Shown: piece by piece, positions 9,578 through 64,000 of the stretch
Layout of the letters: each line of letters starts with the position of its first letter
How positions within the stretch are numbered: the first letter of the stretch is position 1
Assembly (NCBI GenBank): GCA_027459745.1
Contig: DAIDHL010000002.1
Coordinates: 125,656 to 189,655 of the forward strand
DNA from: Candidatus Levyibacteriota bacterium
GTDB taxonomy: Bacteria; Patescibacteriota; Microgenomatia; Levybacterales; UBA12049
Length of the DNA stretch: 64,000 bases
Reading direction: 5' to 3'
Notes under the pieces: generated by a model
Database searches by the model: none
What the model was told of the DNA's origin: nothing
Seen by the model: the letters and a program-made list of their open reading frames with translations, nothing else
Program-made: the position numbers and the translations under genes

Positions 9578-9583
9578 GGTCAT

Positions 9584-11371: not shown

Positions 11372-11524
11372 GTTCTAATTTAACTTTAGCACTTAGGGAG
11401 ATATTTTTTAAAAATATCACGATAGGTTGGAGCTTGAATAAGTTCTGAAGAGTTTTCGTTGGACATGCAAGTATTATAACAAGAGGAGCTAACTTCCAGC
11501 TAGTTTTTGGAGTAAAATAGAGAC

Positions 11525-12583: not shown

Positions 12584-12587
12584 TGTT

Positions 12588-12682
12588 GTCATTTCGAGCG
12601 AACGTAGTGAGTCGAGGGATCTCTGGCGAATGCCAGGTCTCAAATAAATCGAGAAATTCCTCCAGGCGTTATTTCGTCATGT
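12588..12682. repeat. GC-rich hairpin-dense small element, copy B (starts GTCATTTCGAGCGAACG)
   Basis: Directly after the stop of the hydrolase gene. Shares 13/16 of the copy A terminus (GTCATTGCGAGCATCG), and has an internal CTGGCGAATGCCAG hairpin and TCGAG repeats. Confidence 0.35.
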
Positions 12683-12706
12683 GGTCGGAATAACATTAAT
12701 TTCTCT

Positions 12707-23273: not shown

Positions 23274-23339
23274 GGACGTAAATGTTTTAGCAGTTGTAAT
23301 ATTTATATATAGTATATAATATATAAATACATTTGTTCT

Positions 23340-24065: not shown

Positions 24066-24108
24066 TTTTATATGATTAACATTTTATTTTTAAAGTAACC
24101 ACTAATTA

Positions 24109-25272: not shown

Positions 25273-25274
25273 TA

Positions 25275-25835: not shown

Positions 25836-25926
25836 AAAAAGATTATAACGGATTCTTGATTATTTGTCTCAAAGGTTTTTTCATGAGCTTGCAGAAAAAA
25901 ATAAACTATGACATTATGTTTTCACT

Positions 25927-26358
25927 ATGTTGAACGTAGGAGAGCTAGCACCAGATTTTTCTTTGACCGATCAAAATGGCGATTTACACCAACTAAATGA
26001 CTATCAAGGTAAGTGGGTGTTGCTCTATTTTTATCCCAAAGACGATACACCTGGTTGTACAGTCGAGGCATGTGCTTTGCGTGATAACTATGATAAATTA
26101 GAAAAACTGGCTGTAGTTCTGGGTGTGAGTGCCGATAGTATAGACAGCCATAAAAAGTTTGTGGAAAAGTATCATCTGCCATTTACATTGCTTGCCGACC
26201 CCCCAAAAAAAGTAATTGAAAAATATGGAGCCAAAGGAACTCCTTTTAATAAAAGAATTTCTTATTTGATTAATCCACAAGGCGTGATTACCAAAGTTTA
26301 TCCTAAGGTAGATCCATCTCAACACGCGGGGGAAATTCTAAAAGATCTCCCAGTTTAG
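25927..26358 (+). CDS. bcp: thiol peroxidase / peroxiredoxin Bcp
   Basis: FYPKDDTPGCT motif with the peroxidatic Cys. Confidence 0.85.
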   Translation: MLNVGELAPDFSLTDQNGDLHQLNDYQGKWVLLYFYPKDDTPGCTVEACALRDNYDKLEKLAVVLGVSADSIDSHKKFVEKYHLPFTLLADPPKKVIEKYGAKGTPFNKRISYLINPQGVITKVYPKVDPSQHAGEILKDLPV

Positions 26359-43003: not shown

Positions 43004-43427
43004 ACGAATATTAGACGTTCTCCAAAGCCAGCATTTATGTACGATATCCACTGTTAACCAGGAGGATAAATCCGAATCTGCTTTGATTGGATTTGCTGAA
43101 ATGCCAAATTTATCATTAATATTTGGAACAGCTAGCACTTCGCGAAAATACCATAACTTAAGGCAAAATACTTCTGTAGCCTTGGTATTTAATTTGATTA
43201 ATGGACAACAAAAATTAAGTATTCAATATGAAGGCACAGCTGAACAATTAACAGGAGATGAGTTAGTTAAACTTAAAGAGATATTTTTTGCCAAAAACCC
43301 ACAGGCTAAAAGTTATGATTTAGATCCGCATCAGGTTTTCTTTAAAGTTACTCCAATCTGGATACGTTATTCCGATTATTCTGTTAATCCACATGAAATA
43401 TTTGAATTAGCTGCCTTTAGTGATTAG
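42996..43427 (+). CDS. pyridoxamine 5'-phosphate oxidase-like FMN-binding split-barrel protein
   Basis: 143 aa, PNPOx-like family pattern. Overlaps rpe by 8 nt. Confidence 0.5.
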   Translation: MDKRILDVLQSQHLCTISTVNQEDKSESALIGFAEMPNLSLIFGTASTSRKYHNLRQNTSVALVFNLINGQQKLSIQYEGTAEQLTGDELVKLKEIFFAKNPQAKSYDLDPHQVFFKVTPIWIRYSDYSVNPHEIFELAAFSD

Positions 43428-45720
43428 GGGTCGGCGTTGGCGTACCTGAAGGATAAGGAATATAATTACAATTAACGCTATTTTCTGTACCTCTGACAAA
43501 AAATTCAGGTTTTCCATAACAAGTTTTTTGTATAACATCTGCAGGTATAGTCGGCAATGGATTGGGTTTACCTTGTAATAGATTGGTCATAATTTGATGC
43601 CAAATAGGTGCTGCGCCTGTAATGCCTGATACTAATCCATTATTCATGGGAGAATTATTATTGTTTCCGACCCAGGTTATGACTACATCACTAGGAGTAT
43701 AACCATCAGTCCAGTTATCCCTGATATCATTAGTTGTTCCAGTTTTTACTGGCACATAATATCCAGGTATATATAGAGGAGAATTGGGGCCGAATTCCAT
43801 AGAACGGGCATTGTTATCAGCTAGTATGTTGCCAATAATAAAAGCAATGCCAGGATCTAATACAGTTCTTTTACTTATGGTTGCTGAGTTTTTTTGTTCT
43901 ATGACGTTACCTTTAGAGTCAGTGATTTCTAAGATGGGATTCAGACCTACTTCGGTCCCCTCATTGGCTAAAGTGCCATATACTCTGGCCATATCCAGCA
44001 TGGTGACATCAGCAGAACCTAAAGTTAAAGATAATCCATACTGACTTGGATCACCCCAACTATGAATCCCCATTTTTTTGGCCATATCGACCATGTTAGA
44101 TACACCAGTATACTGATTTAAAACTTTAACAGCAGGAATATTTAGTGAATTGGCCAAGGCAGTACGCACTGTCACAGGTCCATGAAATCTGCCGTCGTAA
44201 TTAACTGGTGTGTAAGAATTTCCCCATTGATCAGTAAAGGTAATAGGAACGTCATTTATTATGCTGGCAGCTGTCAGACCGCGTTCGAAGGCCGCACTAT
44301 AATTCACTACTTTAATTGATGATCCGGGTTGACGCAGAGAAGTCGTTAAATTTACATTCCCCCCATTGGGATCGTTAAAATCATGACTCCCCACCATGGC
44401 TAAAATATCTCCAGTACTTGGATTAGTAATCAATGCCGCTCCATTGGTCAAGTTTAAATAATTATCTCTATCTACTTCACTACTCACGACGTCTTGAGCC
44501 ATATTTTGTGTGTTTAAATCTAAAGTTGTGCGTACGATGAGTCCTCCTTTTTCAACTTCGGCTACTCCGTACTTTTGTTCCAGCAAATTGATCACATAAT
44601 TGACAAAATGAGGGGCAAGATAAGGTTCTTTTTGCGGCTCAAAGGTTAGTGTTTCTTTGGCTGCGGCGTCTGCTTGTTGCTGGGTGATAAATTTAGCAAT
44701 TACCATTTGTTGCAAAACCTCTAGCTGCCTTTTTTTCCAGATAGTTGGATAGGGTCCATATGGTGAATAAGTAGATGGTGAAGATGTTAAACCAGCTAAA
44801 AAAGCACACTGTGCCAAGTCTAAATTCTGAACATGTTTATTAAAATATAATTCACTTGCCGCTTCAATACCCCAGGCTGTTCCGCCATATGGTACTTGGT
44901 TAAGATACATCTCTAGAATTTGGTTTTTAGTATAGATTCTTTCAGCCCAAAAGGCTAAGATTACCTCCTTAAATTTACGATAAAGAGTTTGCTTAGGAGT
45001 AAGTAGAGAGGATTTTATTAATTGCTGGGTTATAGTTGATCCACCCTCTAATGGCTTGCCGCTTAAATCGTTAATAGCAGCCCGTAAAATAGACATAACA
45101 TCAAAACCAGGATGAGTATAAAAAGTCTTATCTTCAATGGCGATAGTTGCATGTTGTAGACTGAGCGGTACATCCTTAAGAGGAACTAAGGTACGATTTT
45201 GTTGAGCATAAAGTTGATATAGTAAATGTCCATTACGATCGTATATTTTTGTGGTTTGGGGTATGGGATTGAGAGTTAATTCATTGGGATTAGGCAGATC
45301 TTGAATAAATACAATAGCCACTAAAGGTAAAAAAATAAAAAAGAAAGAAAAAATACAACCGGCGATAACATATTTTAATTTAGCTAAGAACGAAATATAA
45401 ATAGGACGCTTCTTACGTTGTTTACCAACCTTTTTTTCATATTGACGATAGTTAAATACAGTAGCTTTATGCTTTTTCTTAAAAATACTTTTTCTGCCTT
45501 TATTCATTAGATACTGAATATTTCTGGTTAACAGGTTAGCCGTAGAAGATAAGGCTTTGATTACTTGTCGAACTAACTTAACTAAGATTAAAAACAGCCA
45601 AATAACTGTATCGCCAATAAAAATTAAAGTTGCAGGGATTAACTGCAAGACGTGATATAAAAACACAAAAAATAACTCAGCATTTTTATGCCGCTTTTGA
45701 GAACGGTTAGACTTTTTCAT
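43417..45720 (-). CDS. class A penicillin-binding protein (PBP1A-type, bifunctional glycosyltransferase/transpeptidase), paralog 1
   Basis: GT51 motifs (IAIEDKTFYTHPGFD, GGSTITQQL), transpeptidase SxxK (GSSIK), and KTGT. N-terminal TM. C-terminal PTPTPTP tail. Confidence 0.9.
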   Translation of the reverse strand: MKKSNRSQKRHKNAELFFVFLYHVLQLIPATLIFIGDTVIWLFLILVKLVRQVIKALSSTANLLTRNIQYLMNKGRKSIFKKKHKATVFNYRQYEKKVGKQRKKRPIYISFLAKLKYVIAGCIFSFFFIFLPLVAIVFIQDLPNPNELTLNPIPQTTKIYDRNGHLLYQLYAQQNRTLVPLKDVPLSLQHATIAIEDKTFYTHPGFDVMSILRAAINDLSGKPLEGGSTITQQLIKSSLLTPKQTLYRKFKEVILAFWAERIYTKNQILEMYLNQVPYGGTAWGIEAASELYFNKHVQNLDLAQCAFLAGLTSSPSTYSPYGPYPTIWKKRQLEVLQQMVIAKFITQQQADAAAKETLTFEPQKEPYLAPHFVNYVINLLEQKYGVAEVEKGGLIVRTTLDLNTQNMAQDVVSSEVDRDNYLNLTNGAALITNPSTGDILAMVGSHDFNDPNGGNVNLTTSLRQPGSSIKVVNYSAAFERGLTAASIINDVPITFTDQWGNSYTPVNYDGRFHGPVTVRTALANSLNIPAVKVLNQYTGVSNMVDMAKKMGIHSWGDPSQYGLSLTLGSADVTMLDMARVYGTLANEGTEVGLNPILEITDSKGNVIEQKNSATISKRTVLDPGIAFIIGNILADNNARSMEFGPNSPLYIPGYYVPVKTGTTNDIRDNWTDGYTPSDVVITWVGNNNNSPMNNGLVSGITGAAPIWHQIMTNLLQGKPNPLPTIPADVIQKTCYGKPEFFVRGTENSVNCNYIPYPSGTPTPTPNH

Positions 45721-45846
45721 ATTTGGAAATTGGTTCCGGCAGGGGATTTCGTTTAGAATTATACAAAAAACAAGGCTAAATTGAAAGAGTAAAATCTACT
45801 TTAATGTATTTTAAGAACAAATTTTATGTTCATTTATGTATTTAAT

Positions 45847-48027
45847 TTAGGGGGTAGGCGTTGGGGTAGGAGAAGGATGAGGACAGTCAAGGCAATATTT
45901 GTCACCTGTAGGATCCGTAATGACCACATGCGGTTTTAACTCAAGATTATTCGTTTGTCCCTGTGCTGGTAAATCTTGGGTGGTCTTATCAACCCATACA
46001 TTTTGTTGTCCTGGGTCTGTTTGGGTAGGTGCGGTGCCTTTAAGGAAATATTCATAGCGTGAGCTACAAGTAGGATCAGGGTGAGCTGGAACAAGTAATC
46101 CAGATGGATTGCAAATAATTTTACCTATGACATTGTCCGGCATAGCAGGTGGAACGGCTTTTTTGCCATCTAATAGATGACTCATTAAGGAGTGCCAGAT
46201 AGGGGCTGCACCGGTGATTCCGGAGGCAATACTACTCATCGGTGTATGGTTATTATTACCTACCCATACTGCTACAACATAGGCTGGAGAGGTAGTATAT
46301 CCTATGGTCCAGTTATCGCGAAAACTGTTGGTCGTACCCGTTTTAGCAGCTACAGCCTGTCCAGGGATTAGCAGTGATGAATCAGAACCAAAATCAATAT
46401 AACGGGCGCTGTTATCCATGAGCATTTGTGTCATGATATAGCTAACTCCAGAAGGTAGAACGTGAGTACCAAAAATGGGGCTGGAAGGCGGGTTGTATTG
46501 CTCCAGGACTTTACCGGTAGAGTCTGTAACCTTAAGTATAGGATGCAAATTAATACGATATCCTTGGTTAGCTAATACACCATATACAGTAGCCATATCG
46601 GTCATTTTTACCTCTGCACTTCCTAATGTCAGTGATAAGCCATAAATACTCGGATCATTAAAGGTAGTAATACCTAGAGCAGAAGCAGTAGCTAGGAAGT
46701 CGGGAATTGTGTCTAGTTTTAACATTTTTATAGCCGGAATATTGAATGAATTGCCTAAGGCATAACGCATTTGTACCGCTCCATGCCACTTATTGTCGTA
46801 ATTATGTGGGCAGTAAGGAGGATTACCAGGAAAACAGGTAGCATCATCGATAAACGGAGTGGCAGCTGTATAGCCTTTAGTTAGTCCCAGAGAGTAAGTT
46901 ATGGGCTTAATAGACGATCCAGGTTGTAACAGAGCGGTAGTCATGTTGACATTTCCATAGCCTGGGGTGCTGTAACCGATGCTACCTACCATAGCTAAAA
47001 TTTCCCCTGTGTTAGGATCAGTTATTAAGGCAGCTCCATTCGTAACATGATCAGGAATCATAATTCTATTGATCTCGGCTGCCACAGTTGCTTGTGCATA
47101 ATTTTGTAAATCTAAATCCAGTGAGGTTACGACTTTAAGTCCACCCTGTTCCACGGTCTGTACTCCGTATTTTTGCTCCAAAAGATTTTTGATGTAGAAA
47201 ACGAAGTGAGGGGCTAAGATATTGTCTGAGATTTTTTTAAATTTCAATTGTTCATTTTCTGCCTGTGTTAACTGCTGCTTATTTATGTATTTTTGACTGT
47301 ACATCGCATTAAGAACTTCAACTTGTCTTTGTTTGCCTAAGGTAGGATCACTACCATAAGGAGAATATTCACTAGGTGCTTGAGGTAATCCAGCTAAAAA
47401 TGCAGCTTGAGCTAAATCTAAATTTTGTACATTTTTACCAAAGTATGTTTGACTGGCAGCTTCAACTCCATAAGCTGTACCTCCATAAGGAATTTGGTTT
47501 AAATACATTTCTAAAATTTTATTTTTGGGATAAACTGCTTCAGTCAAAAAAGCCAGGATGACTTCCTTAACTTTACGTTGGATAGTACGATCTGGAGTCA
47601 ATAAGGAATTTTTAACTAATTGCTGTGTCAAAGTAGATCCGCCTTGTAGGTTCTGATGTGATAAATCAGCCAACATAGCTCTAGCAATACCGGTGAAGTC
47701 AATAGCACCGTGGGTATAAAAATACCTATCCTCAATAGCGATTGTGGCCTCCTGCATATAGGAGGGAATCTGAGAAAGCGGCACAAAAGATTGGTTTCTG
47801 TTAGCATAAATTGTATAAAGCAACTTGCCGTTGCGGTCGAATATTTGGGTTGATTGTGGATAGGAGGTCGAGCTTAGTTCGCTAGGCGAAGGAAGATCAT
47901 GCAAGATGTATTGATAGAATAAGCCCGCGCCGACTATAATAACTATCAAGACCAGGAGCCAACGGAGCTTAAGAAAGCGTTTGGTTTTTTTATTAACTAA
48001 TTTTGTAATGAGAGTCTTTTTTACCAT
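45847..48027 (-). CDS. class A penicillin-binding protein (PBP1A-type), paralog 2
   Basis: Same motif set (IAIEDRYFYTH, GGSTLTQQL, GSSIK, KTGT). About 60-65% identical to paralog 1 over the GT domain by eye. C-terminal PSPTPTPTP tail. Confidence 0.9.
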   Translation of the reverse strand: MVKKTLITKLVNKKTKRFLKLRWLLVLIVIIVGAGLFYQYILHDLPSPSELSSTSYPQSTQIFDRNGKLLYTIYANRNQSFVPLSQIPSYMQEATIAIEDRYFYTHGAIDFTGIARAMLADLSHQNLQGGSTLTQQLVKNSLLTPDRTIQRKVKEVILAFLTEAVYPKNKILEMYLNQIPYGGTAYGVEAASQTYFGKNVQNLDLAQAAFLAGLPQAPSEYSPYGSDPTLGKQRQVEVLNAMYSQKYINKQQLTQAENEQLKFKKISDNILAPHFVFYIKNLLEQKYGVQTVEQGGLKVVTSLDLDLQNYAQATVAAEINRIMIPDHVTNGAALITDPNTGEILAMVGSIGYSTPGYGNVNMTTALLQPGSSIKPITYSLGLTKGYTAATPFIDDATCFPGNPPYCPHNYDNKWHGAVQMRYALGNSFNIPAIKMLKLDTIPDFLATASALGITTFNDPSIYGLSLTLGSAEVKMTDMATVYGVLANQGYRINLHPILKVTDSTGKVLEQYNPPSSPIFGTHVLPSGVSYIMTQMLMDNSARYIDFGSDSSLLIPGQAVAAKTGTTNSFRDNWTIGYTTSPAYVVAVWVGNNNHTPMSSIASGITGAAPIWHSLMSHLLDGKKAVPPAMPDNVIGKIICNPSGLLVPAHPDPTCSSRYEYFLKGTAPTQTDPGQQNVWVDKTTQDLPAQGQTNNLELKPHVVITDPTGDKYCLDCPHPSPTPTPTP

Positions 48028-55427: not shown

Positions 55428-55919
55428 TTGAATTCTAAATTACTTATGCACTGCCCATATTGCGGATATATAAAATCTGAGGTGATTGAGACAAGAGATA
55501 ACGAAGACAACGACACTATTCGACGCAGAAGGCTTTGTTTGCAATGTGACAAGAGATATACAAGTTACGAAAGAGTTGAAAATATTCATTTGACTGTAAT
55601 TAAGAGAGACGGGAAAAAAGAACCGTATAATATTGAAAAACTACGTTCGGGAATAATTAAAGCCTGTGGTAAGACAACAATCGGTATTGAAGAAATAAAC
55701 AAGTTGGTGGCAGATGTTACGAGAGAATTAAGAAGTGGAGATAGTGTAGAAATTGATAGCAGATTGATTGGTAAATTAGTAGCAAAGCGTCTTAAAGCAT
55801 TGGATAAAGTAGCATATATTCGTTTTGCTAGCGTATTCAAACGTTTTGTAGATGCAGAAGATTTTGAAAAAGAATTACAAGTATTTAGTAAAAGGAATAA
55901 ATTAATTAAAAAAAACTAA
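55428..55919 (+). CDS. nrdR: transcriptional repressor NrdR (zinc ribbon + ATP-cone)
   Basis: CPYCG...CLQCDKR zinc ribbon followed by an ATP-cone. The TTG at 55428 is preceded by AGGTAGGT at SD distance. An alternative ATG at 55446 (MHCPYCG) gives the canonical NrdR N-terminus. Confidence 0.8.
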   Translation: MNSKLLMHCPYCGYIKSEVIETRDNEDNDTIRRRRLCLQCDKRYTSYERVENIHLTVIKRDGKKEPYNIEKLRSGIIKACGKTTIGIEEINKLVADVTRELRSGDSVEIDSRLIGKLVAKRLKALDKVAYIRFASVFKRFVDAEDFEKELQVFSKRNKLIKKN

Positions 55920-55920
55920 T

Positions 55921-58371
55921 ATGATAAAACTTGATGGTATCAGAGGAAAAGTATTTTTAGATCGTTATGCTCTTAAAGATAAAGAGGGTAATTTGATAGA
56001 ACATACTCCAGAAGAAACTTGGAGAAGAGTCGCCAGAGGAATTGCTCAAAGCGAAAAAGCCAAGGATCGAGAGTACTGGGAGGAAGAATTTTATAAAGCC
56101 ATGGCAGATTTCAAATTTGTGCCAGGTGGTCGTATTCTGTCTGGCGCAGGTACAGGTTTTCAGGTAACATATTTCAATTGTTTTGTTATTCCCTCACCTA
56201 AAGATTCTCGCCATGGTATTTTGGAATCACTTGGTCAACTAGTAGAAATTCAGGCACGCTCGGGAGGGGTAGGTTTAAATCTTTCTTCGTTACGTCCTAA
56301 GGGTGCTCGTGTAAAAAAGGTCAATGGTACTTCTTCTGGGCCCGTTAATTGGGCTACGCTTTTCTCAGTCGCTACTCATGATATTGTGCAGCAAGGTGGA
56401 TCACGTCGTGGTGCAACCATGTTGATGTTAAATGACTGGCATCCAGATATTGAAGAATTTATTACCGTCAAAGAAGATTTGACAAAAATCAGTGGTGCTA
56501 ATTTATCAGTCTGTATTTCAGATGCGTTTATGGAGGCTGTGAAAGCAGATAAAAGTTGGGAGTTAGTTTATCCTGATACTAGTGATCCAGATTACGATGA
56601 AAAATGGAATGGTGAATTGGACCAATGGAAAGCCTTGGGTAAAGAAGTTAAAGTATTCAAGACTGTAAAAGCGCGTGAATTGTGGGATCTTATCTGCACA
56701 GCTGCTTGGAGATCAGCCGAGCCAGGTCTACATTTCCTAGAGAGATCCAATAAGCGTTCTAATACTTGGTATTTCGAAAGATTGGTCGCTACTAACCCTT
56801 GCGGAGAACAACCTCTCAGTGGTTGGGCTGTTTGTAATCTAGGAGCTATGAATTTGTCAGCATATGTTAAAGATGCAGATTTAGCTAATGAGAAAGCTGG
56901 TTGGTTTGATTACAAGTCTTTTGCTCAGGATGTAAAAGTCGCCATGCGTTTTATGGATAATGTCATTGACCAGACACACTACTTTTTCCCAGAAAATGAG
57001 AAGGTTGCTAAGGATATTCGCAGAACTGGTCTGGGTATCATGGGGTTAGGAGATACTTTAATCAAAATGCACATTCGTTATGGTTCTGAGGAATCAATCC
57101 CCGTAGTAGAAAAGATCTTTCAAACCTTGCGTGATAGTGCATACGAAGCTTCTAGTGATATAGCTGCAGAGAAGGGTAGTTTCCCCAAATTTGATAAAGA
57201 TAAATATTTACAAGGTTACTTTATAAAAGCTTTGCCCAAGAAGTTACGTGACAAGATTCGTGATCAAGGAATTCGCAATGGAGTATTGCTTACTGTAGCT
57301 CCCACTGGTACCACAAGTTTAGTGGCTGGCGTATCGTCGGGTATTGAGCCTGTCTATGAGTTTTCTTTTTTGCGCAAATGGAGAGGTGGAGAAGAAGTGA
57401 TGTATCATCCGCTTTATGACGCCTGGATCAAAAATCATCCAACAGCAGCTAAACCAGATTATTTTTGTAGTACCAATGATTTAACTCCTTTAGAACATGC
57501 CAAGGTGCAGGCTGTGGCCCAAGAATATATTGATTCTAGTATCTCAAAAACGGTTAATGCTCCTAAAAATCATACAGTCGATGATGTGAAGACACTCTAT
57601 ATGTTGGCCTATGATATGGGTTTGAAAGGTATTACTTATATGCGGGATGGTTCACGCCAAGGTGTGTTGGAAAGAATAGAAGAGAAAAAAGAAGAAAAGA
57701 AAGAAGAAGTTAAACCTGCTATTCCAGCTACTCCGCGGGTAGCTCGTCCGATGATGCTGATGGGTACCACTTACAAAACTGAAAGTCCAGTTGGTAATAC
57801 TTACATTACCATCAATCACGATGAGAAGAGTGATCCATTTGAAGTATTTATTAGTAATGGAAAATCTGGATCAGATGTTTCAGCTATGGCAGATGCTTTA
57901 GGTAGAATGATTTCCTTTATTCTGCGTATTCATAGTTCTGTGCCTCAACGTGAACGTGTACGCGAAATAGTGTCTGAATTGACAGGTATTGGCGGAGCAC
58001 GTACTGTTGGCTTTGGACCTAATCGTGTACGCTCATTACCTGATGCAGTAGCCAAGATTTTGGCTCGACATTTTGAGTTTAGAGTTAACGGAAAAGTAGA
58101 AGATAAAGAAGTCATTGCCGCGGTAAAAGCCGAGCCCATTCTGGCTGCTTCGGCTAGCTTAACTAATGGACATGCTGCAGTAATAACTCAGCCAGTAGAT
58201 ATGCCAGCTACACCAGTAGCTCAACAATTGACTTTGACGGCTGATGCTCCAGTACAAATGGAACATAGTACAACTAATTTATTTGATATGTGTCCTGAAT
58301 GTCAGACATATAGTTTTGCTTACGAAGAAGGTTGCAAAAAATGCTATAGCTGTGGCTATAGTGAGTGTTAA
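55921..58371 (+). CDS. nrdJ: adenosylcobalamin-dependent (class II) ribonucleotide reductase NrdJ
   Basis: FVPGGRILSGAGTG and TNPCGEQPL active-site motifs. C-terminal CxxC...CxxC zinc ribbon. 2 nt downstream of nrdR. Confidence 0.9.
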   Translation: MIKLDGIRGKVFLDRYALKDKEGNLIEHTPEETWRRVARGIAQSEKAKDREYWEEEFYKAMADFKFVPGGRILSGAGTGFQVTYFNCFVIPSPKDSRHGILESLGQLVEIQARSGGVGLNLSSLRPKGARVKKVNGTSSGPVNWATLFSVATHDIVQQGGSRRGATMLMLNDWHPDIEEFITVKEDLTKISGANLSVCISDAFMEAVKADKSWELVYPDTSDPDYDEKWNGELDQWKALGKEVKVFKTVKARELWDLICTAAWRSAEPGLHFLERSNKRSNTWYFERLVATNPCGEQPLSGWAVCNLGAMNLSAYVKDADLANEKAGWFDYKSFAQDVKVAMRFMDNVIDQTHYFFPENEKVAKDIRRTGLGIMGLGDTLIKMHIRYGSEESIPVVEKIFQTLRDSAYEASSDIAAEKGSFPKFDKDKYLQGYFIKALPKKLRDKIRDQGIRNGVLLTVAPTGTTSLVAGVSSGIEPVYEFSFLRKWRGGEEVMYHPLYDAWIKNHPTAAKPDYFCSTNDLTPLEHAKVQAVAQEYIDSSISKTVNAPKNHTVDDVKTLYMLAYDMGLKGITYMRDGSRQGVLERIEEKKEEKKEEVKPAIPATPRVARPMMLMGTTYKTESPVGNTYITINHDEKSDPFEVFISNGKSGSDVSAMADALGRMISFILRIHSSVPQRERVREIVSELTGIGGARTVGFGPNRVRSLPDAVAKILARHFEFRVNGKVEDKEVIAAVKAEPILAASASLTNGHAAVITQPVDMPATPVAQQLTLTADAPVQMEHSTTNLFDMCPECQTYSFAYEEGCKKCYSCGYSEC

Positions 58372-58424
58372 GTAAATGAGAATTTATTAATAATTAGAAA
58401 TTGTAAATTAAAAATTAAATGGTT

Positions 58425-58593
58425 ATCTAGGTAATAGAGGTGTAATTCCTCATCAGTGCCGCTACTGTGACCCCACTTCGCGTAAAGTTACGCGGAGCAG
58501 GGAAGACAGAAAACTAGGTAATTTTATCTTTATCCCGAGCAGGAATTTTTGTTTCTCATCAGATAAAAGTTCTCGCTTAGGAGAACTTTTTTT
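58425..58593 (+). promoter_or_regulatory. cobalamin (AdoCbl) riboswitch, compact variant, with expression-platform hairpin
   Basis: In order: GGUGUAAUUCC (GGUGnAAnUCC), GCCGCUACUGUGA (CCGCnACUGUnA), CCCCACUU (B12-box-like CCACU), and GGGAAGAC (GGGAAG). A hairpin AAGUUCUC-GCUUAG-GAGAACUU plus U7 overlaps the AGGAGA SD just before the ATG at 58594. Confidence 0.6.
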
Positions 58594-59145
58594 ATGAGAA
58601 TATTACTTCGAGCAAAGCAGTTAATAAATAACGTAATAAAACTAAACCCACTGTTATATGTTGGATTATTTGTAGCTGCTCGTTTATTGCCACATCCGGC
58701 TAATCTGTCGCCAGTTGATGCCATGGTACTATTTGCCGGGGTCTATTTAAATAGACGTTATGCGTTAATAGCTCCTTTGGTAGCCTTATTTATCTCCGAT
58801 ATGTTTTTAGGGTTTTACTGGCAAATGCCCTTCGTTTACGGGAGCTTTATCATTACTGGTTTATTGGGTTTATGGCTTAGACATCATAAGTCTATTACTA
58901 ATATCTTAGGTTTTTGTTTATTGTCGTCAGTACAATTTTTTGTTATTTCTAATTTTGGTGTTTGGTTAACTACTAGTTTTTATATTCATACTTTGAGTGG
59001 TCTAATTAATTGCTATGTGATGGCATTACCATTTTTCCGCAATAGTCTGATAGGTGATCTGGTTTATACAAGCTTATTCTTTGGAAGTTATGAGTTTATA
59101 GTTTTTAAGCTGATTAAGTACAAGCAAGTCTTAAATAAGGAATGA
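58594..59145 (+). CDS. small 5-6 TM transporter component, ECF S-component/BtuM-like (candidate cobalamin uptake protein)
   Basis: 183 aa, all-membrane. Sits between a cobalamin riboswitch and a PduO-type adenosyltransferase. Confidence 0.5.
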   Translation: MRILLRAKQLINNVIKLNPLLYVGLFVAARLLPHPANLSPVDAMVLFAGVYLNRRYALIAPLVALFISDMFLGFYWQMPFVYGSFIITGLLGLWLRHHKSITNILGFCLLSSVQFFVISNFGVWLTTSFYIHTLSGLINCYVMALPFFRNSLIGDLVYTSLFFGSYEFIVFKLIKYKQVLNKE

Positions 59146-59212
59146 CGTAATAGGTATAAGGGTTAAGAGAATTTCCTTATACCCTTACTACTAACTACTT
59201 AGACCTATTTTT

Positions 59213-59776
59213 ATGAAAACCAAGATTTATACCAAAACAGGAGATAAAGGTAAAACATCATTAGTCGGTGGTAAAAGAGTAAACAAATTCGATTTACGAG
59301 TGGAAACCTATGGCACGGTGGATGAGCTTAATTGTGCTACTGGAATCGTTATCGCTCAAATTAAAAATTCAAAATTAAAAATTAAAAATGAAAAATCATT
59401 AATTATAAGTTATTTGGAAGAGATTCAGAATGATTTATTTACTATTGGATCAACATTAGCAAATCCCAATAATCCAGCATTACCACAATTAGAAAAGCGC
59501 ATTAAAGAATTGGAAAAGATAATTGATCAAATGACTGAACATTTACCCGAATTAAAAAATTTTATTTTACCTGGGGGTAGTCTGACTGGTGCACAATTAC
59601 ATTTGGCTAGAACTATTTGTCGAAGAGCTGAACGCAGGGTTGTTGAATTAAAACAGACAGAAGAAATTGATGATTTAATTGTAAGTTATTTCAATCGTTT
59701 ATCAGATTTTCTATTTACCGCTGCCAGATATGCCAATCATCTGAAAAATAAAAAAGAAACAATTTGGAGAACTTAA
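59213..59776 (+). CDS. PduO-type ATP:cob(I)alamin adenosyltransferase
   Basis: N-terminal IYTKTGDKGKTSL signature of the PduO family. Confidence 0.85.
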   Translation: MKTKIYTKTGDKGKTSLVGGKRVNKFDLRVETYGTVDELNCATGIVIAQIKNSKLKIKNEKSLIISYLEEIQNDLFTIGSTLANPNNPALPQLEKRIKELEKIIDQMTEHLPELKNFILPGGSLTGAQLHLARTICRRAERRVVELKQTEEIDDLIVSYFNRLSDFLFTAARYANHLKNKKETIWRT

Positions 59777-59779
59777 GAT

Positions 59780-60955
59780 ATGCTGCAAGCAGTTGAGATG
59801 GGGCGACAGTTGCCTCAAAATATTGAGATTCAAAAAAATAATCATTTATCGTTCAATCTATCCCATGAGAGAGATCGTGCCTTGGAAGCAAGTCGTACAG
59901 GCAATAGAGAACAAATGAAATTAGCTCGTGATGGCTTTATACAAAACACGCAATATTGGGCCAAAGAATATATAGGTGGCATACAAACTACACATTATCT
60001 TTGGCACATTGTTGATGATGGAGGTAAGACTCGTTTATATCATCCCTCTTTCGGTTATGCGGATGATGCTTCGCAGCGCGCTTTAGAACAGAATGTACCT
60101 GAGTATGAAAAAAAGAGAAGGCAAGTTGAACATAACGTGACTAAGCAGTTTTCTCAAGTATTAAAAGATGCCCACAAAGGCGATGTTTTCGTCTGGACTA
60201 GTCCTCCTCCTGAAGTAAAGGGAATTGAAAAAGGAGTATATGGTGGATATACTATGACTCACTTATATGAGGTCGATGAGGTTACACTTAATGAAGGCGG
60301 AAAAACAAAATCTGTCAAGATTCTCAAAGGTAGAGATGTAAAAAATTACTTAAAAAATGAAGAACATAAAGAGTTACTCGAGACTTTAGGTGAACAAAAA
60401 ATTTTTGAAGGTATACCATCTTCTCTGGATCTTTTAGCAACTTTAGTAAAAGTTAAATATGGAACTTCCAGTCGTGATGTAGAAACAAAAATAAAACAAA
60501 TAGAAAAATATTTAGGACCGTCAGAAAATGAAACAAAAGTTAAAGAATTTGAAAAAATTTTGCAGGATAATGAATGGATGTTAGAACGTATATTCCAAAT
60601 GTTGATTTTGGAAGATGTTAATATTTCACAAGCTTTTATAACTAATTATTTTAAACAATACGCACAAGCAATTGAGCTGGCACAAAGCAAAGGTTCAGAT
60701 AAAACATTGGACGCACTGGGTTTTGTAGCACATGTCGCGGCAGGTGGCAGTTGTGGCGCAGGTGTGGGATTTGGAGATGCAGCTAAAAATGCTTTTGGTT
60801 ATCAGCCCACTGCGCTGGCCGCAAGCTTAAGTGGTGAAAGAACCTTAAAGTGTAAAGAATGTCCCTTATGTAAGAGCAAAGATATAGAGGCAGTTATTAA
60901 AGATGGTAAAATTCAATGTCCTTCTTGTATGGGTTCTGCCGAATATGCTTGTTAG
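59780..60955 (+). CDS. hypothetical 391-aa protein with C-terminal 4-Cys zinc ribbon; last gene of the riboswitch-controlled operon
   Basis: No family assignable. C-terminus CKECPLC...CPSC. Starts 3 nt after the PduO stop. Confidence 0.5.
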   Translation: MLQAVEMGRQLPQNIEIQKNNHLSFNLSHERDRALEASRTGNREQMKLARDGFIQNTQYWAKEYIGGIQTTHYLWHIVDDGGKTRLYHPSFGYADDASQRALEQNVPEYEKKRRQVEHNVTKQFSQVLKDAHKGDVFVWTSPPPEVKGIEKGVYGGYTMTHLYEVDEVTLNEGGKTKSVKILKGRDVKNYLKNEEHKELLETLGEQKIFEGIPSSLDLLATLVKVKYGTSSRDVETKIKQIEKYLGPSENETKVKEFEKILQDNEWMLERIFQMLILEDVNISQAFITNYFKQYAQAIELAQSKGSDKTLDALGFVAHVAAGGSCGAGVGFGDAAKNAFGYQPTALAASLSGERTLKCKECPLCKSKDIEAVIKDGKIQCPSCMGSAEYAC

Positions 60956-61005: not shown

Positions 61006-61653
61006 ATGGACGATAGTACACAACAAAATAATAATTCACAGCAGGCTGCCAATGGTTCATCTGATGATCAGGTAACTCTAGTCCCTGTAGCAGATAATGC
61101 ACAACATACAAGAGAACAAGTTCTCTTAGAACAGAGAGATGAAGATGCAGCTACTCAACCATCTTCTACTACAGTAAGCCAAGATGATCGTATTAAGCAA
61201 CTTAATATAGCACAATCTCAAGCCAAACCTGCGCAATCTTATCATCCAGTGAGTTCGTTGCATAAAGAACAAGCACCAGTTCGTGCAAACGAGACAATGC
61301 GTTCCTCAGAGCCAGGAGAAAGTCAACCAGAAATAAGCGCTGAGTTGAAGGAAATTGGTATAGAAGAATCACAGGATGAAGAACAGCTCAAACTATCTGC
61401 AGAGCAAGAATTAGCCGGTTTGGAACCTGCTAAAGAATCTGTTCCTATGAACTCGCATATAACAGCTAATATGAAGTTCCCTCAACAGCCATTTACAGCC
61501 AATGAGGCGGATGATATAATCAAAACCACTTCACCCGATGAGTCGAAACACTGGCTGGCTGTATTGGTGCTATCGATTCTACACAAACTTCATATTAAAG
61601 AATTGCGTAAAAAGGAAGAATCAAAGTTGTCCTTAGTAGAAAAAGCTGCTTGA
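61006..61653 (+). CDS. acidic Gln/Glu-rich hypothetical protein with hydrophobic C-terminal helix
   Basis: Low-complexity Q/E/S-rich N-terminal region. C-terminal WLAVLVLSILHKLHI. Confidence 0.45.
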   Translation: MDDSTQQNNNSQQAANGSSDDQVTLVPVADNAQHTREQVLLEQRDEDAATQPSSTTVSQDDRIKQLNIAQSQAKPAQSYHPVSSLHKEQAPVRANETMRSSEPGESQPEISAELKEIGIEESQDEEQLKLSAEQELAGLEPAKESVPMNSHITANMKFPQQPFTANEADDIIKTTSPDESKHWLAVLVLSILHKLHIKELRKKEESKLSLVEKAA

Positions 61654-61660
61654 TTAAATT

Positions 61661-64000
61661 ATGGATGTGGTAAGTTCATTTCTAGCTGGAGATCCGACAG
61701 GACTATTAATAGGTCTAGTGGTTTTTTCTGTGGTTTTTTTATTGTTTTTCGCTTTAGTAGCCGTTTTGGGTTATATATTTTTCTTATGGTATAAATATAG
61801 ACATCGAGAAGAAGAAGCTTTAAATTCAACTTTACTTCAGGTAGCAGTCCCACGCGATAATGAGATTAAAATAGATGCAGCAGAACAGCTTTTTTCTAGT
61901 TTGTCAGCTATAAAAAAAAGTGGGAGATTGCATTTTCTACATCCTCAACCGCATATATCTTTCGAAATAGTAGGTATGCCGGGTGATATACGTTACTATA
62001 TTCATGTTCCCAATAAAATTCGTGATTTTGTAGAAAAACAGATTAATGGTTCTTATCCCGATGCGCAAATTGTTGAAGTTGGAGACTCAGCTGCACATCA
62101 GAGAACAGATTCTGTTTTAGGCGGTGAGTACAATATTTTTTCTGAAACTGGTAAAGTCGCTTATGCGTCTTTGAAGCTCAAAGCTGCATCCTATTATCCA
62201 ATTAAAGTATTTAAAGATTTCCCGGTAGATCCGATGGCATCGATTACTTCTACATTAGCTAAAATGGGTGAGGGTGAAGGAGTAGCTATACAAGTCTTAA
62301 TAAGTCCGGCGGACAAGCATTGGAAATCGCAAGGAAAAGCTTATATTTCTAAAACTAAAAAAAGTGAGTCTAATCCTGAGACAGCTAAGTATTCAGTAGA
62401 TAGTAAAGAGTTAGAAGGGATTGAAAATAAGATTTCTAAACCAGGTTTTGATACAACGATTAGAGTAGTTGTATCTTCTAGCTCTACAGAAGCTGCCAAT
62501 ATGCATTTGTCCAATATTATCAATGGTTTTAGTCAATATAGTGGCTCAAATGAATTTAAGAAACTTAAAATACGTATGAAAGGTGCATTTATTACAGATT
62601 TTGTTTATCGCTATTGGCCGCTTTGGGATCATACTTCTGTGCTATCTAGTGAAGAGCTGGCAACGATTTTCCATTTTCCCAATAAAGGCGTAGCAACTCC
62701 TGGAATTCATTGGGTTAATTCTAAAAGAGCTCCTGCGCCTTCTAATTTGCCGCCTAGTGGTTTGTTTATTGGGAAAAGTGTATTTAGAGGTATCAGCAGA
62801 CCAATTTATATGAGTAAGTTTGATCGTCAGCGGCATATGTATATTATTGGTAAAACAGGTACTGGAAAATCTGAGTTTTTGAAAGAAATGATTATGCAGG
62901 ATATTCGAGCAGGAGAGGGATTAGCCGTGGTGGATCCGCATGGGGATTTAGTCGAAGATATTTTGCAGCTTATACCTCCGCAAAGAGCTGAAGATGTGAT
63001 TTTATTTGATCCCTCAGATATTGAGCGGCCGATGGGTATGAATATGTTAGAAGCGCAATCGGAAGATCAGAAACATATGGTAGTTACGTCAATTATTGGT
63101 TTGATGTATAAATTATTTGATCCGAACAAAACTGGTATTATTGGCCCCAGATTTGAGCATGCTGTACGTAACGCTATGTTGACAGTGATGGCTGAACCTG
63201 GGAATACATTTATTGAAGTTATGCGTGTATTGACTGACCCTTCATTTGTGCAGGAATTATTGCCTAAAGTTGATGATCCGATTGTTCGTCGTTATTGGAC
63301 AGATCAGATTGCGCAGACTAGTGATTTTCACAAATCTGAAGTTTTGGATTATATTACTTCTAAGTTTGGACGTTTCGTTACTAACAAGATGATTCGCAAT
63401 ATAATAGGACAGTCGTACAGTGCTTTTCAATTTAGAGATGTGATGGATAACAGAAAGATTTTATTAATTAATCTTTCTAAGGGACGCATTGGCGAAGAGA
63501 ATTCTAGTTTCTTGGGTTTAATCATTGTGCCCAAGATTCTGGTAGCCGCGATGAGTCGACAGGATATACCTAAAGAACAACGTAAAGATTTTTATTTATA
63601 TGTTGATGAGTTCCAAAATTTTGCTACACCTGATTTTGCGCAAATTTTATCAGAGGCAAGAAAGTATAAACTTAATTTGACAGTTGCCAATCAGTTTATT
63701 GGACAGATGGATGAAGAAATTAAGAACGCTATCTTTGGTAATGTGGGAACTATTGTATCTTTCCGTGTGGGCGTAACTGATGCCAATTATTTACAGCATG
63801 AATTTACACCCACTTTTACTGAAGCTGATTTAATTAATATCGATCGATTCAATGCATATATTAGGACCGGTGTAGATGGTGAACCTGCCCCACCATTTTC
63901 TTTAGACTTAACAAAAGATACTTCACAAGAAGAGAAAATGAAGAACTCTCGTGTAGCTGAATTAGTTAAAGAACTTTCACGACTTAAATATGGTAGAGAT
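61661..64000 (+). CDS. membrane-anchored VirB4/TraE-like (AAA_10/DUF87, FtsK-HerA superfamily) secretion/conjugation ATPase; 3' end beyond window
   Basis: Open frame from the ATG at 61661 to the window end. Not in the ORF track because there is no stop within the window. N-terminal TM, about 400-aa N-domain, Walker A IIGKTGTGKSEF, Walker B/DE LYVDEFQNF. Confidence 0.6.
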   Translation, partial: MDVVSSFLAGDPTGLLIGLVVFSVVFLLFFALVAVLGYIFFLWYKYRHREEEALNSTLLQVAVPRDNEIKIDAAEQLFSSLSAIKKSGRLHFLHPQPHISFEIVGMPGDIRYYIHVPNKIRDFVEKQINGSYPDAQIVEVGDSAAHQRTDSVLGGEYNIFSETGKVAYASLKLKAASYYPIKVFKDFPVDPMASITSTLAKMGEGEGVAIQVLISPADKHWKSQGKAYISKTKKSESNPETAKYSVDSKELEGIENKISKPGFDTTIRVVVSSSSTEAANMHLSNIINGFSQYSGSNEFKKLKIRMKGAFITDFVYRYWPLWDHTSVLSSEELATIFHFPNKGVATPGIHWVNSKRAPAPSNLPPSGLFIGKSVFRGISRPIYMSKFDRQRHMYIIGKTGTGKSEFLKEMIMQDIRAGEGLAVVDPHGDLVEDILQLIPPQRAEDVILFDPSDIERPMGMNMLEAQSEDQKHMVVTSIIGLMYKLFDPNKTGIIGPRFEHAVRNAMLTVMAEPGNTFIEVMRVLTDPSFVQELLPKVDDPIVRRYWTDQIAQTSDFHKSEVLDYITSKFGRFVTNKMIRNIIGQSYSAFQFRDVMDNRKILLINLSKGRIGEENSSFLGLIIVPKILVAAMSRQDIPKEQRKDFYLYVDEFQNFATPDFAQILSEARKYKLNLTVANQFIGQMDEEIKNAIFGNVGTIVSFRVGVTDANYLQHEFTPTFTEADLINIDRFNAYIRTGVDGEPAPPFSLDLTKDTSQEEKMKNSRVAELVKELSRLKYGRD

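Follow-up and report, generated by a model that had tools for sequence, protein, structure and literature searches.

The window analysed here, a stretch of 64,000 nucleotides from the genome of a Candidatus Levyibacteriota bacterium, ends within the gene of a membrane-anchored ATPase, which starts with an ATG at position 61661 on the + strand and continues for 780 codons without a stop to position 64000. The database protein P0284, with a length of 794 aa, is identical at 780/780 of the residues encoded in the window; missing from the window are 14 codons, with the stop codon 42 nt past its end. The original prediction had recognized this long open frame. It was also right that the frame is lacking in the list of open reading frames because it is incomplete; its continuation past the last position of the window is the sole reason for the omission. 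The system was, however, thought to lie largely outside the window, whereas 780/794 of the ATPase codons are inside. We classify the gene (61661..64000, +, codons 1–780 of 794) as encoding a long-form ATPase of the type IV coupling-protein (T4CP) type, with a probable DUF8128 N-domain in front of a VirD4/TraD-like motor.

The protein starts with a single transmembrane (TM) helix at approximately aa 12–45 (61694..61795, +), in line with the TM segment originally noted; the KD19 maximum is 3.16 and AF2 places a helix at residues 12–45. This helix is followed by the basic stretch KYRHR and, because of the positive-inside rule, an N-out/C-in topology is predicted, with the rest of the protein in the cytoplasm. 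The N-domain (aa 46–385; 61796..62815, +) has a VirB4-NTD-like alpha/beta fold and comprises about 340 aa after the TM helix rather than the 400 aa first proposed. The Walker A motif or P-loop, IIGKTGTGKSEF, occupies aa 395–406 (62843..62878, +), and not the vicinity of residue 435 where it had been placed; the residues G397, K398, T399, G400, G402, and K403 do not vary among 68 homologues. An all-helical insertion in the nucleotide-binding domain (NBD; aa ~468–596; 63062..63448, +) occupies the site where coupling proteins have their all-alpha domain. The Walker B strand and catalytic acids, FYLYVDEFQNF, follow at aa 644–654 (63590..63622, +), with Y647 through F654 invariant in the same 68 homologues. 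This includes the previously recognized DEFQNF box (aa 649–654, nt 63605–63622).

The stop codon of the gene immediately upstream (61006..61653, +), which encodes a 215-aa acidic low-complexity protein, lies 7 nt before the ATPase start. Members of its family are found directly upstream of the ATPase in 71/78 related loci, mostly with gaps of −4 to +10 nt. Since a database search also recovered over 6,000 ATPase homologues, this pair of open reading frames cannot be attributed to chance. The acidity reported earlier for the 215-aa protein is confirmed (pI 4.80, net charge −16), aa 1–170 having a pI of 4.36 and the C-terminal 45 aa a pI of 9.5. In an alignment of the family, the MDD N-terminus and a basic amphipathic helix at the C-terminus stand out as conserved. 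For this helix, HWLAVLVLSILHKLHIKEL, an amphipathic and a TM nature had both been considered; with a KD19 of only 1.02 it is amphipathic and not transmembrane. No match to the 215-aa protein was obtained in Pfam, NCBIfam, PADLOC, or PHROG. A family HMM detected neither the small acidic or Q/P-rich proteins encoded upstream of distant ATPase homologues nor the C-terminal extensions of long ATPase paralogues, and the 215-aa protein corresponds to these only in position and composition. That it might stand in, in trans, for the acidic tail of T4CPs meets with only mixed support, because the extensions of long-form ATPases are acidic in many clusters and basic in others. The cagZ gene is located close to that of Cag-beta. 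Cag-beta (VirD4) and the small ATPase regulator CagZ (title of PDB 8dol) provide an analogy for the 215-aa protein that concerns the presence of a small dedicated partner. The 215-aa protein itself looks disordered and acidic.

Further upstream, a gene for a 391-aa protein (59780..60955, +) encodes a conserved W-SPP motif, a GGSCG motif, and a zinc-ribbon-like CxxC...CxxC C-terminal end. This family occurs in about 52 related loci, usually second upstream of the ATPase, and is a frequent neighbour in that position in Levyibacteriota. It is fast-evolving, has 13 database relatives only and none in Pfam or PDB, and was not encountered beside distant ATPase homologues in the neighbourhoods inspected. 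It is a doubtful member of the ATPase module. Among the sigma-70-like sites of the region, the best one combines TTTACA and TATAAT, 17 nt apart and with TG upstream (11/12 matches; 61492..61520, +). It is embedded in the 3′-terminal part of the 215-aa gene and precedes the ATPase start by 140 nt; an identical site is present at equal distance in the related locus L001. It may represent an internal promoter but constitutes weak evidence, because the number of such sites does not exceed that in shuffled sequences and the site is located in conserved coding sequence. The promoter and terminator scans as a whole were no richer than shuffles.

The context beyond position 64000 was read from the nearest relative, whose ATPase has 96% amino-acid and 82% nucleotide identity, and from 80 other related loci. 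In the genome of the nearest relative, the ATPase gene is followed by genes for an Fe-SOD, a histidine kinase, UDG, a ClpB-like protein, and other housekeeping genes; neither a Xer nor a DivIC gene is present downstream. In the 80 loci of related species, the order CobAT, 391-aa family, 215-aa family, ATPase is conserved. In synteny with the block are NrdR, ribonucleotide reductase (RNR), and CobAT on the upstream side and, in many cases, XerC/D-like, DivIC, and MurD genes on the downstream side. This sample comes mostly from one phylum-level group, and synteny breaks down around distant homologues. The ATPase gene is present in essentially all relatives, and its median identity over 81 loci (70.5%) can be compared with 69.8% for GAPDH, 66% for RNR, and 61% for NrdR of the same block. 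The GC content at the ATPase locus (0.37) is typical of the window. An origin from an integrative or conjugative element or a genomic island, for which a compositional check had been proposed, was rejected on the basis of this ordinary GC content and the conservation of gene order across species.

No genes for VirB4, VirB6, VirB8, or a relaxase, nor any other T4SS gene family, recur within 8 kb of the ATPase in the 80 related loci. In the window itself, no open reading frame resembles VirB4, VirB6, TcpC, TcpE, or a relaxase and, apart from the ATPase, none is T4SS-like. According to the original prediction, a type IV secretion or conjugation system begins with the ATPase, and its remaining components would be encoded past position 64000. 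The downstream regions of the relatives contradict this, and a lack of secretion genes there had been named in advance as refuting it. The ATPase stands alone, away from secretion genes in nearly all Patescibacteria and, consequently, is not the border gene of a secretion or conjugation island.

The profile searches group the motor with coupling proteins and not with the VirB4 class that had been preferred over VirD4. In Pfam, the ATPase exceeds the gathering scores of TrwB_AAD_bind (33.8 vs. 20.5 bits), T4SS-DNA_transf (29.7 vs. 20.1), and TraG-D_C (25.6 vs. 22), although these T4CP-family matches extend only over the Walker A and the Walker B/C-terminal regions; DUF87 (28.8 vs. 23.2) matches the P-loop region only. 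AAA_10, to which the protein was earlier thought to belong, and CagE_TrbE_VirB gave no match at E ≤ 0.1. The top NCBIfam matches are VirD4-like CD1115 and SXT TraD, both at about 7e-14, whereas the VirB4 models reach 2e-3 to 7e-3 and one of them, TIGR00929, gives 14.6 bits where 643 would be required. The curated NCBIfam cut-offs are, however, far from attained for CD1115 (51.5/250 bits) and SXT_TraD (51.1/366 bits) as well, and the ATPase forms a separate and more remote clade. DotL and TrwB are the top sequence matches in PDB, and the motor, a RecA-like NBD with Walker A and B motifs and an all-alpha insertion, can be superposed on both.

In TrwB and VirD4, the motor comes immediately after two TM helices. 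The ATPase shares with TrwB (R388), VirD4, TraD, and DotL/IcmO the RecA-like motor, the helical insertion, and an N-terminal membrane anchor, but differs in having one TM helix, followed by a 340-aa VirB4-NTD-like domain, and in lacking an acidic C-terminal tail and linked relaxase or MPF genes. Its identity to canonical coupling proteins is only 13–17%. The single TM helix, vs. the usual two, and the low NCBIfam scores argue against its identity as a T4CP. Profiles of VirB4/TrwK (R388; PDB 7o42, 8rtd), on the other hand, barely register on the protein, and VirB3, VirB6, and VirB8 genes are not adjacent. The N-domain probably corresponds to PF26449 (DUF8128), an assignment made via the homologues: PF26449 is precomputed for all of the best 120 of the more than 6,000 homologues and for the 96%-identical P0001. 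A search with the N-domain yielded 2,315 clusters at E ≤ 1e-3. We conclude that DUF8128 is folded like the N-terminal domain of VirB4 and that the ATPase combines a VirB4-type N-domain with a C-terminal motor. A literature search on the name DUF8128 gave no match, and the CPR protein-family paper does not mention the ATPase.

Distant homologues with the same two domains occur in mobile elements. On the conjugative plasmid NZ_CP012476 of Shouchella clausii (Bacillaceae), WP_248290882.1 is 26% identical over 698 aa (E 8e-46), covering N-domain and motor. Its gene lies directly upstream of that of a Replic_Relax relaxase, and the plasmid also encodes TcpC, TcpE, and a separate, true VirB4 (AAA_10, 1e-115). 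This protein, annotated as “DUF87 domain-containing protein,” differs from the window ATPase in lacking an N-terminal TM helix and in possessing an acidic C-terminal tail of ~140 aa; the ATPase, in turn, has none of the relaxase, TcpC, TcpE, and VirB4 neighbours of this long-form T4CP. The match to gp156 of Bacillus phage G extends over aa 96–733 (E 4e-40), and phrog_5156, which comprises gp156 and VirD4-like proteins of the SPO1 group, matches at 6.5e-87. In phage G, the gp156 gene comes after TrbL/VirB6-like and VirB4-like genes. In contrast to the chromosomal ATPase of the window, these proteins are phage-encoded; a scan of IMG/VR viral contigs revealed no relative of the ATPase. Plasmid pHTS138 of Haloterrigena carries the N-domain and the T4CP as split open reading frames within a pilin/conjugal-transfer cluster. 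All non-Patescibacterial homologues for which the context was inspected are thus part of a T4SS or conjugation cluster, and the two-domain family holds the position of the coupling protein in conjugative elements of Firmicutes and archaea.

For the Patescibacteria, ultra-small CPR bacteria that include the Levyibacteriota (Microgenomates), 5,713 T4CP homologues have been reported from 2,918 of 3,035 genomes (about 96%), only 148 of them near virB4. VirB4 itself was detected in 2,417 genomes and is reported to be encoded next to TrsD, at a separate site (Quinonero-Coronel et al., 2025; PMC12102498). Relaxases are nearly absent (109 in 103 genomes; PMC12102498), so that the canonical DNA substrate is missing and no substrate is known. 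Two Levybacteria genomes each contain one VirB2/TrsD/VirB4 cluster and one T4CP hit hundreds of CDS away (PMC12102498). Almost certainly, the window ATPase is one of these catalogued homologues far from virB4: both belong to the same phylum and the t4cp1/VirD4-like HMM class, are chromosomal, are not near virB4, have no relaxase, and occur at about one or two per genome. The single t4cp1 hit of the published Levybacteria genomes would then represent the ATPase family. In the T4CP sections of that study, the family is treated as a generic T4CP hit, and neither the N-domain nor the partner gene is mentioned. To that account our analysis adds the DUF8128 N-domain with its VirB4-NTD fold, the translational coupling to an acidic partner, an exceptionally high conservation, and the Firmicutes, archaeal, and phage homologues in T4CP position.

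Gene structure, family, fold, conservation, and gene order of the ATPase, as well as the absence of neighbouring T4SS genes, were established here. We consider it probable that the gene pair represents an orphan chromosomal long-form T4CP of Levyibacteriota with a small acidic partner, which likely serves a T4SS encoded elsewhere; most likely, the ATPase would feed substrates to that system. Coupling ATPases in the conjugative elements of monoderms and archaea are the probable ancestors of the family, which in Patescibacteria is a near-universal and very slowly evolving core gene, unlinked from virB4, other T4SS genes, and relaxases. A membrane-anchored hexamer would use ATP to engage a macromolecule, i.e., protein, or DNA where a relaxase exists, and would hand it to an MPF-FATA-like T4SS elsewhere on the chromosome, with the VirB4-like N-domain docking onto an inner-membrane platform of the VirB3/VirB8/TrsD type. 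The translationally coupled, acidic and disordered protein would be an adaptor, a regulator, or a cargo that works through the conserved helix at its C-terminus.

Several observations do not fit easily with a role in feeding a T4SS. In Southlakia epibionticum, the T4CP homologue, which may or may not be of the DUF8128 type, is reported to be dispensable in Tn-seq, whereas the T4SS genes are essential (PMC12102498). The homologues, furthermore, are more widespread than VirB4 and were never located beside T4SS genes in our 80 loci, and a conservation equal to or exceeding that of core enzymes, in stable synteny with the housekeeping genes listed above, is unusual for a secretion accessory. These data would favour an exapted, T4SS-independent housekeeping translocase of Patescibacteria, formed by the ATPase and its acidic partner without a tie to the virB4 cluster, that moves, for example, DNA or unfolded protein at the membrane in scavenging, division, or host contact. 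Exaptation of the Patescibacterial homologues was also raised by the authors of the catalogue (PMC12102498). We regard this explanation as rather unlikely, however. Apart from the restricted sampling of the synteny and its loss around distant homologues, the ATPase has no com, fts, or repair gene as a regular neighbour, transformation in Saccharibacteria is already accounted for by ComEC, and all inspected homologues outside the Patescibacteria point to T4SS or conjugation. One TM helix per subunit cannot form a channel alone and, therefore, an exapted translocase would still need a partner.

A DNA translocase of the FtsK/SpoIIIE or HerA type, functioning in chromosome segregation or repair, is very unlikely. 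The shared FtsK-HerA superfamily, weak matches to FtsK_SpoIIIE and HerA profiles, and the XerC/D-like and DivIC genes often present a few genes downstream in relatives could be taken to suggest it, but these genes are missing in the nearest relative, FtsK_SpoIIIE scores 19 bits (gathering score 24), and HerA of NCBIfam 13.5 bits (cut-off 970). Neither FtsK nor HerA is the best match, an outcome that would have refuted the original prediction. The N-domain is VirB4-like and not a barrel, and a HAS-barrel, gamma domain, four-TM anchor, and NurA neighbour are all lacking. Even less probable is the VirB4/TraE/TcpF-class ATPase at the edge of a T4SS or conjugative island: its layout of a TM helix, a long N-domain, and then an ATPase and the fold of its N-domain are indeed those of VirB4, but only 14 codons separate the window end from the end of the gene, the profile scores, the downstream genes, the 80 loci free of T4SS genes, and the ordinary composition described above speak against it, and the true VirB4 is a different protein where an element has both. 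An ATPase of an anti-phage defence system (MADS mad8-like, DndH/DptH-like, or HerA-like) is hardly conceivable, as the matches are confined to the shared P-loop motor, the neighbourhoods contain no methyltransferase, nuclease, Sir2, or other defence partner, and a near-universal, single-copy gene in a fixed housekeeping position under strong purifying selection is the opposite of how defence islands behave; it was rejected, as was the FtsK/HerA type.

Our results are thus corrective in that no secretion island is hidden past the window edge, which instead holds a nearly complete copy of a catalogued family. About 96% of Patescibacteria genomes encode this family (PMC12102498). Its conservation equals or surpasses that of GAPDH and RNR in the same block, and it is unlinked from the T4SS that is essential in cultivated Saccharibacteria. 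The DUF8128 fold, the coupled acidic partner, and the coupling-protein position of the homologues in Firmicutes and archaeal elements provide handles for distinguishing service to a T4SS from exaptation. Tentatively, and with considerable doubt, it may be envisaged that a coupling ATPase of conjugation was domesticated in Patescibacteria and now forms a core machine of nearly all of them that is non-conjugative, possibly T4SS-independent, still provided with a VirB4-type docking domain, and equipped with a dedicated acidic, disordered partner. Equally doubtful is the suggestion that such a machine moves, for example, proteins or nucleic acids through the membrane, or along it, in epibiotic exchange with a host. 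If true, domestication would explain why the ATPase is conserved as strongly as central enzymes, and the 215-aa protein could be cargo or could correspond, as a product of a separate gene, to the acidic tail that classical T4CPs carry.

The frame at the end of the window opens with an ATG at 61661 and runs without a stop codon to 64000, i.e., over 780 codons (three forward frames read from 61501). As the original prediction had supposed, it was missed in the ORF listing because it runs past the window end. The database protein P0284 (794 aa) is identical to it at 780 out of 780 residues and, consequently, only 14 codons are lacking, which leaves little room for the idea that the system of interest lies largely outside the window. 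The transmembrane segment expected at its start is indeed present as a helix of high hydrophobicity (aa ~12-45; KD19 peaking at 3.16), followed by the basic residues KYRHR, which according to the positive-inside rule would leave the N-terminus outside and most of the protein in the cytoplasm. The Walker A motif (IIGKTGTGKSEF, aa 395-406) is situated near residue 400 instead of 435, and the DEFQNF box at aa 649-654.

The ATPase scores above the Pfam gathering threshold in TrwB_AAD_bind, T4SS-DNA_transf, TraG-D_C and DUF87, whereas FtsK_SpoIIIE stays under threshold and neither AAA_10 nor CagE_TrbE_VirB is matched. The best NCBIfam models are the VirD4-like conjugal protein of the CD1115 family and SXT TraD (both about 7e-14), while VirB4 models reach just 2e-3 to 7e-3 and HerA 0.019, all of these scores being far under the curated cut-offs. 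A PDB search with a profile of 15 homologues ranked DotL/IcmO and TrwB first. The sequence evidence, therefore, points to coupling proteins, and the earlier preference for VirB4/TraE/TcpF (AAA_10) over VirD4 is not borne out. Comparison of the motor structures gave 28.4 for the C-terminal domain of VirB4 (4ag5), 27.6 for the DptH/DndH C-domain, 25.5 for TrwB, 23.2 for HerA, 22.8 for DotL, 19.9 for Cag-beta and 16.2 for FtsK. The modelled motor thus falls in the VirB4/VirD4/HerA clade and not with FtsK; structure does not separate VirB4 from VirD4, but sequence does, favoring VirD4/T4CP. Judged by its motifs and family matches, the protein is a motor that is anchored in the membrane, catalytically intact and, by sequence, of the VirD4 class.

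The N-terminal 340 aa of the ATPase homologues correspond to Pfam PF26449 (DUF8128), of which we found no mention in our literature search. When aa 46-385 were modeled alone (pLDDT 85.7, pTM 0.82), Foldseek placed 14 TrwK chains on top (E 8e-9 to 8e-6, probability 1.0), the next family following at 1.3e-3. When the full ATPase model was compared, the alignment to the same TrwK chain (about 368 residues) ran through the motor; since the N-domain query has no P-loop domain, its match must be to the VirB4 N-terminal domain. In the model, a VirB4-NTD-like domain thus sits between the membrane anchor and the motor. The VirB4-like layout predicted originally holds, therefore, for architecture and fold but not for sequence, as none of the (Pfam) sequence profiles detects the relation. 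In the Haloterrigena plasmid pHTS138 a 399-aa N-domain ORF (phmmer 1.2e-15 to aa 56-357) is followed directly by a T4CP-like ORF of 1,034 aa; a pilin and a ‘conjugal transfer protein’ of 1,099 aa belong to the same cluster. The two ORFs (7758-12051 of the plasmid) overlap at the start of the second. The occurrence of the N-domain as an ORF of its own in haloarchaeal plasmids shows that it is a separable module.

The protein search yielded >6,000 relatives of the ATPase, the best 120 of which all derive from Patescibacteria (Levybacteria, Levyibacteriota or ‘Patescibacteria group’) and measure 782-813 aa, except for one 689-aa fragment. With the N-domain alone, 2,315 clusters were obtained (E<=1e-3, clustering at 50% identity), most of about 780-870 aa and some of 1,000-2,006 aa, the C-terminal extensions of the latter containing no Pfam domain. 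For those of 1,400-2,006 aa (P0258, P0213, P0237, P0241, P0245, P0250) these extensions comprise 600-1,200 aa, and most of them are acidic (pI 4-5). The closest genome that could be retrieved, GCA_027459725.1, encodes an ATPase with 96% identity, at a DNA identity of about 82%. When window proteins were compared with their counterparts in related loci, identities to the nearest relative and medians were 96 and 70.5% for the ATPase (81 loci), 94 and 69.8% for GAPDH, 94 and 66% for the ribonucleotide reductase (RNR), 90 and 61% for NrdR, 77 and 55% for the cobalamin adenosyltransferase (CobAT), 71 and 33% for the 215-aa protein encoded upstream, and 70 and 35% for the 391-aa protein preceding it. 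Across 68 ATPase sequences, no variation occurs in the Walker motifs or in extended segments of the motor. Many loci (e.g., L006, L009, and L010) are titled ‘uncultured Gammaproteobacteria bacterium,’ ‘Methylomirabilota’ or ‘Limnocylindrales’; these contigs are clearly patescibacterial (ATPase 65-73% identical, same synteny) and the titles look like placeholders or wrong labels on bulk MAG submissions.

Genomic context was examined in 80 related loci (ATPase identity 65-96%, one genome per species), for which ORFs were called in the 8-kb flanks and clustered. The 215-aa family lies directly upstream of the ATPase in 71 of 78 loci, mostly with gaps of -4 to +10 nt. Further neighbors are PduO-type CobAT (58 loci), the 391-aa family (about 45-52), class II RNR (49), DUF5667 (38), NrdR (37) and DUF6580 (24), with XerC/D-like (46), DivIC-like (39) and MurD (19) genes downstream. 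VirB4, VirB6, VirB8, TcpC, TcpE and relaxase families are absent from these flanks. In GCA_027459725.1 the ATPase is followed by an Fe-SOD gene on the opposite strand, a GAF histidine kinase, UDG, an S24 peptidase, HxlR and a ClpB-like gene, and in a second genome (ATPase 77% identical) by a XerC/D-like recombinase, DivIC and MurD. Within the window, no ORF matches reference VirB4, VirB6/TrbL, TcpC, TcpE or relaxase proteins at E<=0.01, the other large ORFs encoding PBPs, PGI, GlnA, MFS, ABC and HlyD-type proteins. GC content at 60-64 kb (0.37) is as elsewhere in the window and gives no compositional hint of an integrative element. The original prediction placed the ATPase at the edge of a secretion or conjugation system and named a downstream region devoid of other secretion components as evidence against this; that is what the relatives display. 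The ATPase is tightly coupled to its acidic partner gene and unlinked to T4SS genes, and we consider its identity and context to be established with high confidence. In most relatives (L002, 12863-16763, and 46 other loci) the XerC/D-like recombinase (286 aa) is encoded on the opposite strand, one to four genes downstream, accompanied by a DivIC-like and often a MurD gene; as it is not so placed in the nearest relative (L001), this probably reflects synteny rather than function.

The partner gene (61006-61653) ends 7 nt before the ATPase start. Its 215-aa product is very acidic, as predicted (pI 4.8, net charge -16): an acidic stretch of low complexity (aa 1-170, pI 4.36) is followed by 45 residues that are basic (pI 9.5). 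Its helix HWLAVLVLSILHKLHIKEL, for which an amphipathic or transmembrane nature had been proposed, is amphipathic and not transmembrane (KD19 1.02). The family retains an MDD start, short acidic repeats and a C-terminal W-hydrophobic-basic helix, while the middle drifts. Distant DUF8128 proteins (N-domain 32-37% identity) are again preceded by a small acidic or Q/P-rich low-complexity protein, directly upstream or, in locus L085, two genes upstream. One of these proteins has a hydrophobic C-terminal helix; the 215-aa family HMM reveals no connection to them. The 391-aa protein (59780-60955; identical to database protein P0271) contains two invariant motifs, W-SPP and GGSCG, and a zinc-ribbon-like CxxC...CxxC at its C-terminus. 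It evolves fast and, exclusively in Levyibacteriota, is usually encoded between the genes for CobAT and the acidic protein. Neither Pfam nor the PDB yielded a relative, and it was not found beside distant ATPase homologues; its membership of the module is uncertain.

The region's best sigma-70-like site (61492-61520; TTTACA, 17-nt spacer, TATAAT, extended -10 TG) falls within the 3' end of the 215-aa gene and precedes the ATPase start by 140 nt. It recurs unchanged in relative L001 (82% identity; 9832-9860) and may be an internal promoter or simply conserved coding sequence. Further upstream (55428-59776), NrdR, class II RNR (B12-dependent type, TSCPD), DUF6580 (a weak ECF S-component-like match) and PduO-type CobAT form a block syntenic across Levyibacteriota, which looks like a self-contained module for adenosylcobalamin-dependent dNTP synthesis, possibly including a cobalamin uptake component. 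Elsewhere in the window, 22001-26000 is low in GC (0.26-0.29 vs. about 0.36-0.41) and contains genes for a family-2 glycosyltransferase and an acyltransferase (Acyl_transf_3), probably representing a variable surface-polysaccharide islet. Two class A penicillin-binding proteins of 767 and 726 aa (transglycosylase plus transpeptidase) are encoded in tandem at 43417-48027 (-) and a SpoIID-domain protein at 39332-41104; the ORFs at 21756-23351 (-; 530 aa) and 36453-38261 (602 aa) have no Pfam match.

Homologues also occur on mobile elements. A tblastn search against plasmids gave 324 records, of which 40 covered 80% or more of the query, with Bacillaceae, Streptomyces, haloarchaea and Sulfolobus as sources. 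A 31-kb plasmid of Shouchella clausii encodes an 883-aa homologue (26% identity over 698 aa across both domains, E 8e-46) directly upstream of a Replic_Relax relaxase, together with TcpC, TcpE and a genuine VirB4 (AAA_10, 1e-115). With a separate true VirB4 and an adjoining relaxase, this homologue must be the second ATPase of the element, in the position of a coupling protein; unlike the window ATPase, it has no transmembrane helix and ends in an acidic tail of roughly 140 aa. Gp156 of Bacillus phage G is homologous over aa 96-733 (E 4e-40) and comes after gp153 and gp155. The gene row of this jumbo phage (JN638751.1, 87772-93336) resembles a miniature T4SS: gp153 (TrbL/VirB6-like), the small gp154, gp155 (VirB4-like; P-loop_TraG, AAA_10) and gp156, the DUF8128 T4CP homologue. 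SPO1-group phages have VirD4-like relatives of about 900 aa, and the PHROGs entry of the family is phrog_5156 (6.5e-87). A 946-kb ENA metagenome scaffold (8001-13811 of locus L086) encodes in tandem two DUF8128/T4CP-like ATPases of 834 and 899 aa, separated by a 189-aa ORF. Upstream of them lie the genes for an acidic protein of 123 aa, with an overlap of 4 nt, and for a 957-aa protein lacking a Pfam match; the ATPase pair agrees with the published figure of roughly two T4CP matches per genome in the phylum.

T4CPs are hexameric receptors for substrates, either relaxase-DNA complexes or effector proteins, which they pass on to the VirB4/VirB3/VirB6/VirB8 complex of the inner membrane; in R388 structures the VirB4 N-terminal domain touches VirB3 and the tails of VirB8. 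The window ATPase might, according to this scheme, work in trans with a chromosomal T4SS, onto which its VirB4-like N-domain would dock, with the acidic partner (disordered body, conserved basic C-terminal helix) as adaptor, regulator or cargo. The survey of Patescibacteria by Quinonero-Coronel et al. (2025; PMC12102498) reports VirB4, in a clade nested in MPF-FATA, for 2,417 of 3,035 genomes and just 109 relaxases; because relaxases are nearly absent, a protein substrate would be likelier than DNA. We put this mechanism forward tentatively, giving it slightly less than an even chance. The same survey reports 5,713 VirD4-type T4CP homologues in 2,918 genomes, only 148 of them near virB4, and its Table S3 lists two Levybacteria genomes, each of which has one VirB2/TrsD/VirB4(/VirB1) cluster and, hundreds of CDS away from it, just one t4cp1 match. 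We infer that the window ATPase is one of these orphan T4CPs. The T4SS cluster of Southlakia epibionticum is described as having no recognizable coupling and relaxase proteins (Wang et al., 2023).

The main rival explanation, an exapted ATPase function independent of the T4SS, seems to us rather improbable, albeit far from negligible. Speaking for it are a T4CP distribution wider than that of VirB4 and a conservation of housekeeping grade, as well as the reported dispensability of the S. epibionticum T4CP homologue, as opposed to its essential T4SS, for which reason Quinonero-Coronel et al. (2025) keep exaptation possible.

The family as such is already known: NCBI annotates it as ‘type IV secretion system DNA-binding domain-containing protein,’ Pfam holds it as DUF8128, and it was counted in the 2025 survey. 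Four aspects were not found described in the publications consulted, i.e., that DUF8128 has a VirB4-NTD fold, that the acidic partner is conserved, that the ATPase is conserved above the level of core enzymes of the same block, and that the family is linked to long-form T4CPs encoded by phage G and by plasmids of Firmicutes and archaea. They extend the knowledge of the family modestly and in ways that can be tested, and do not amount to a new kind of system.
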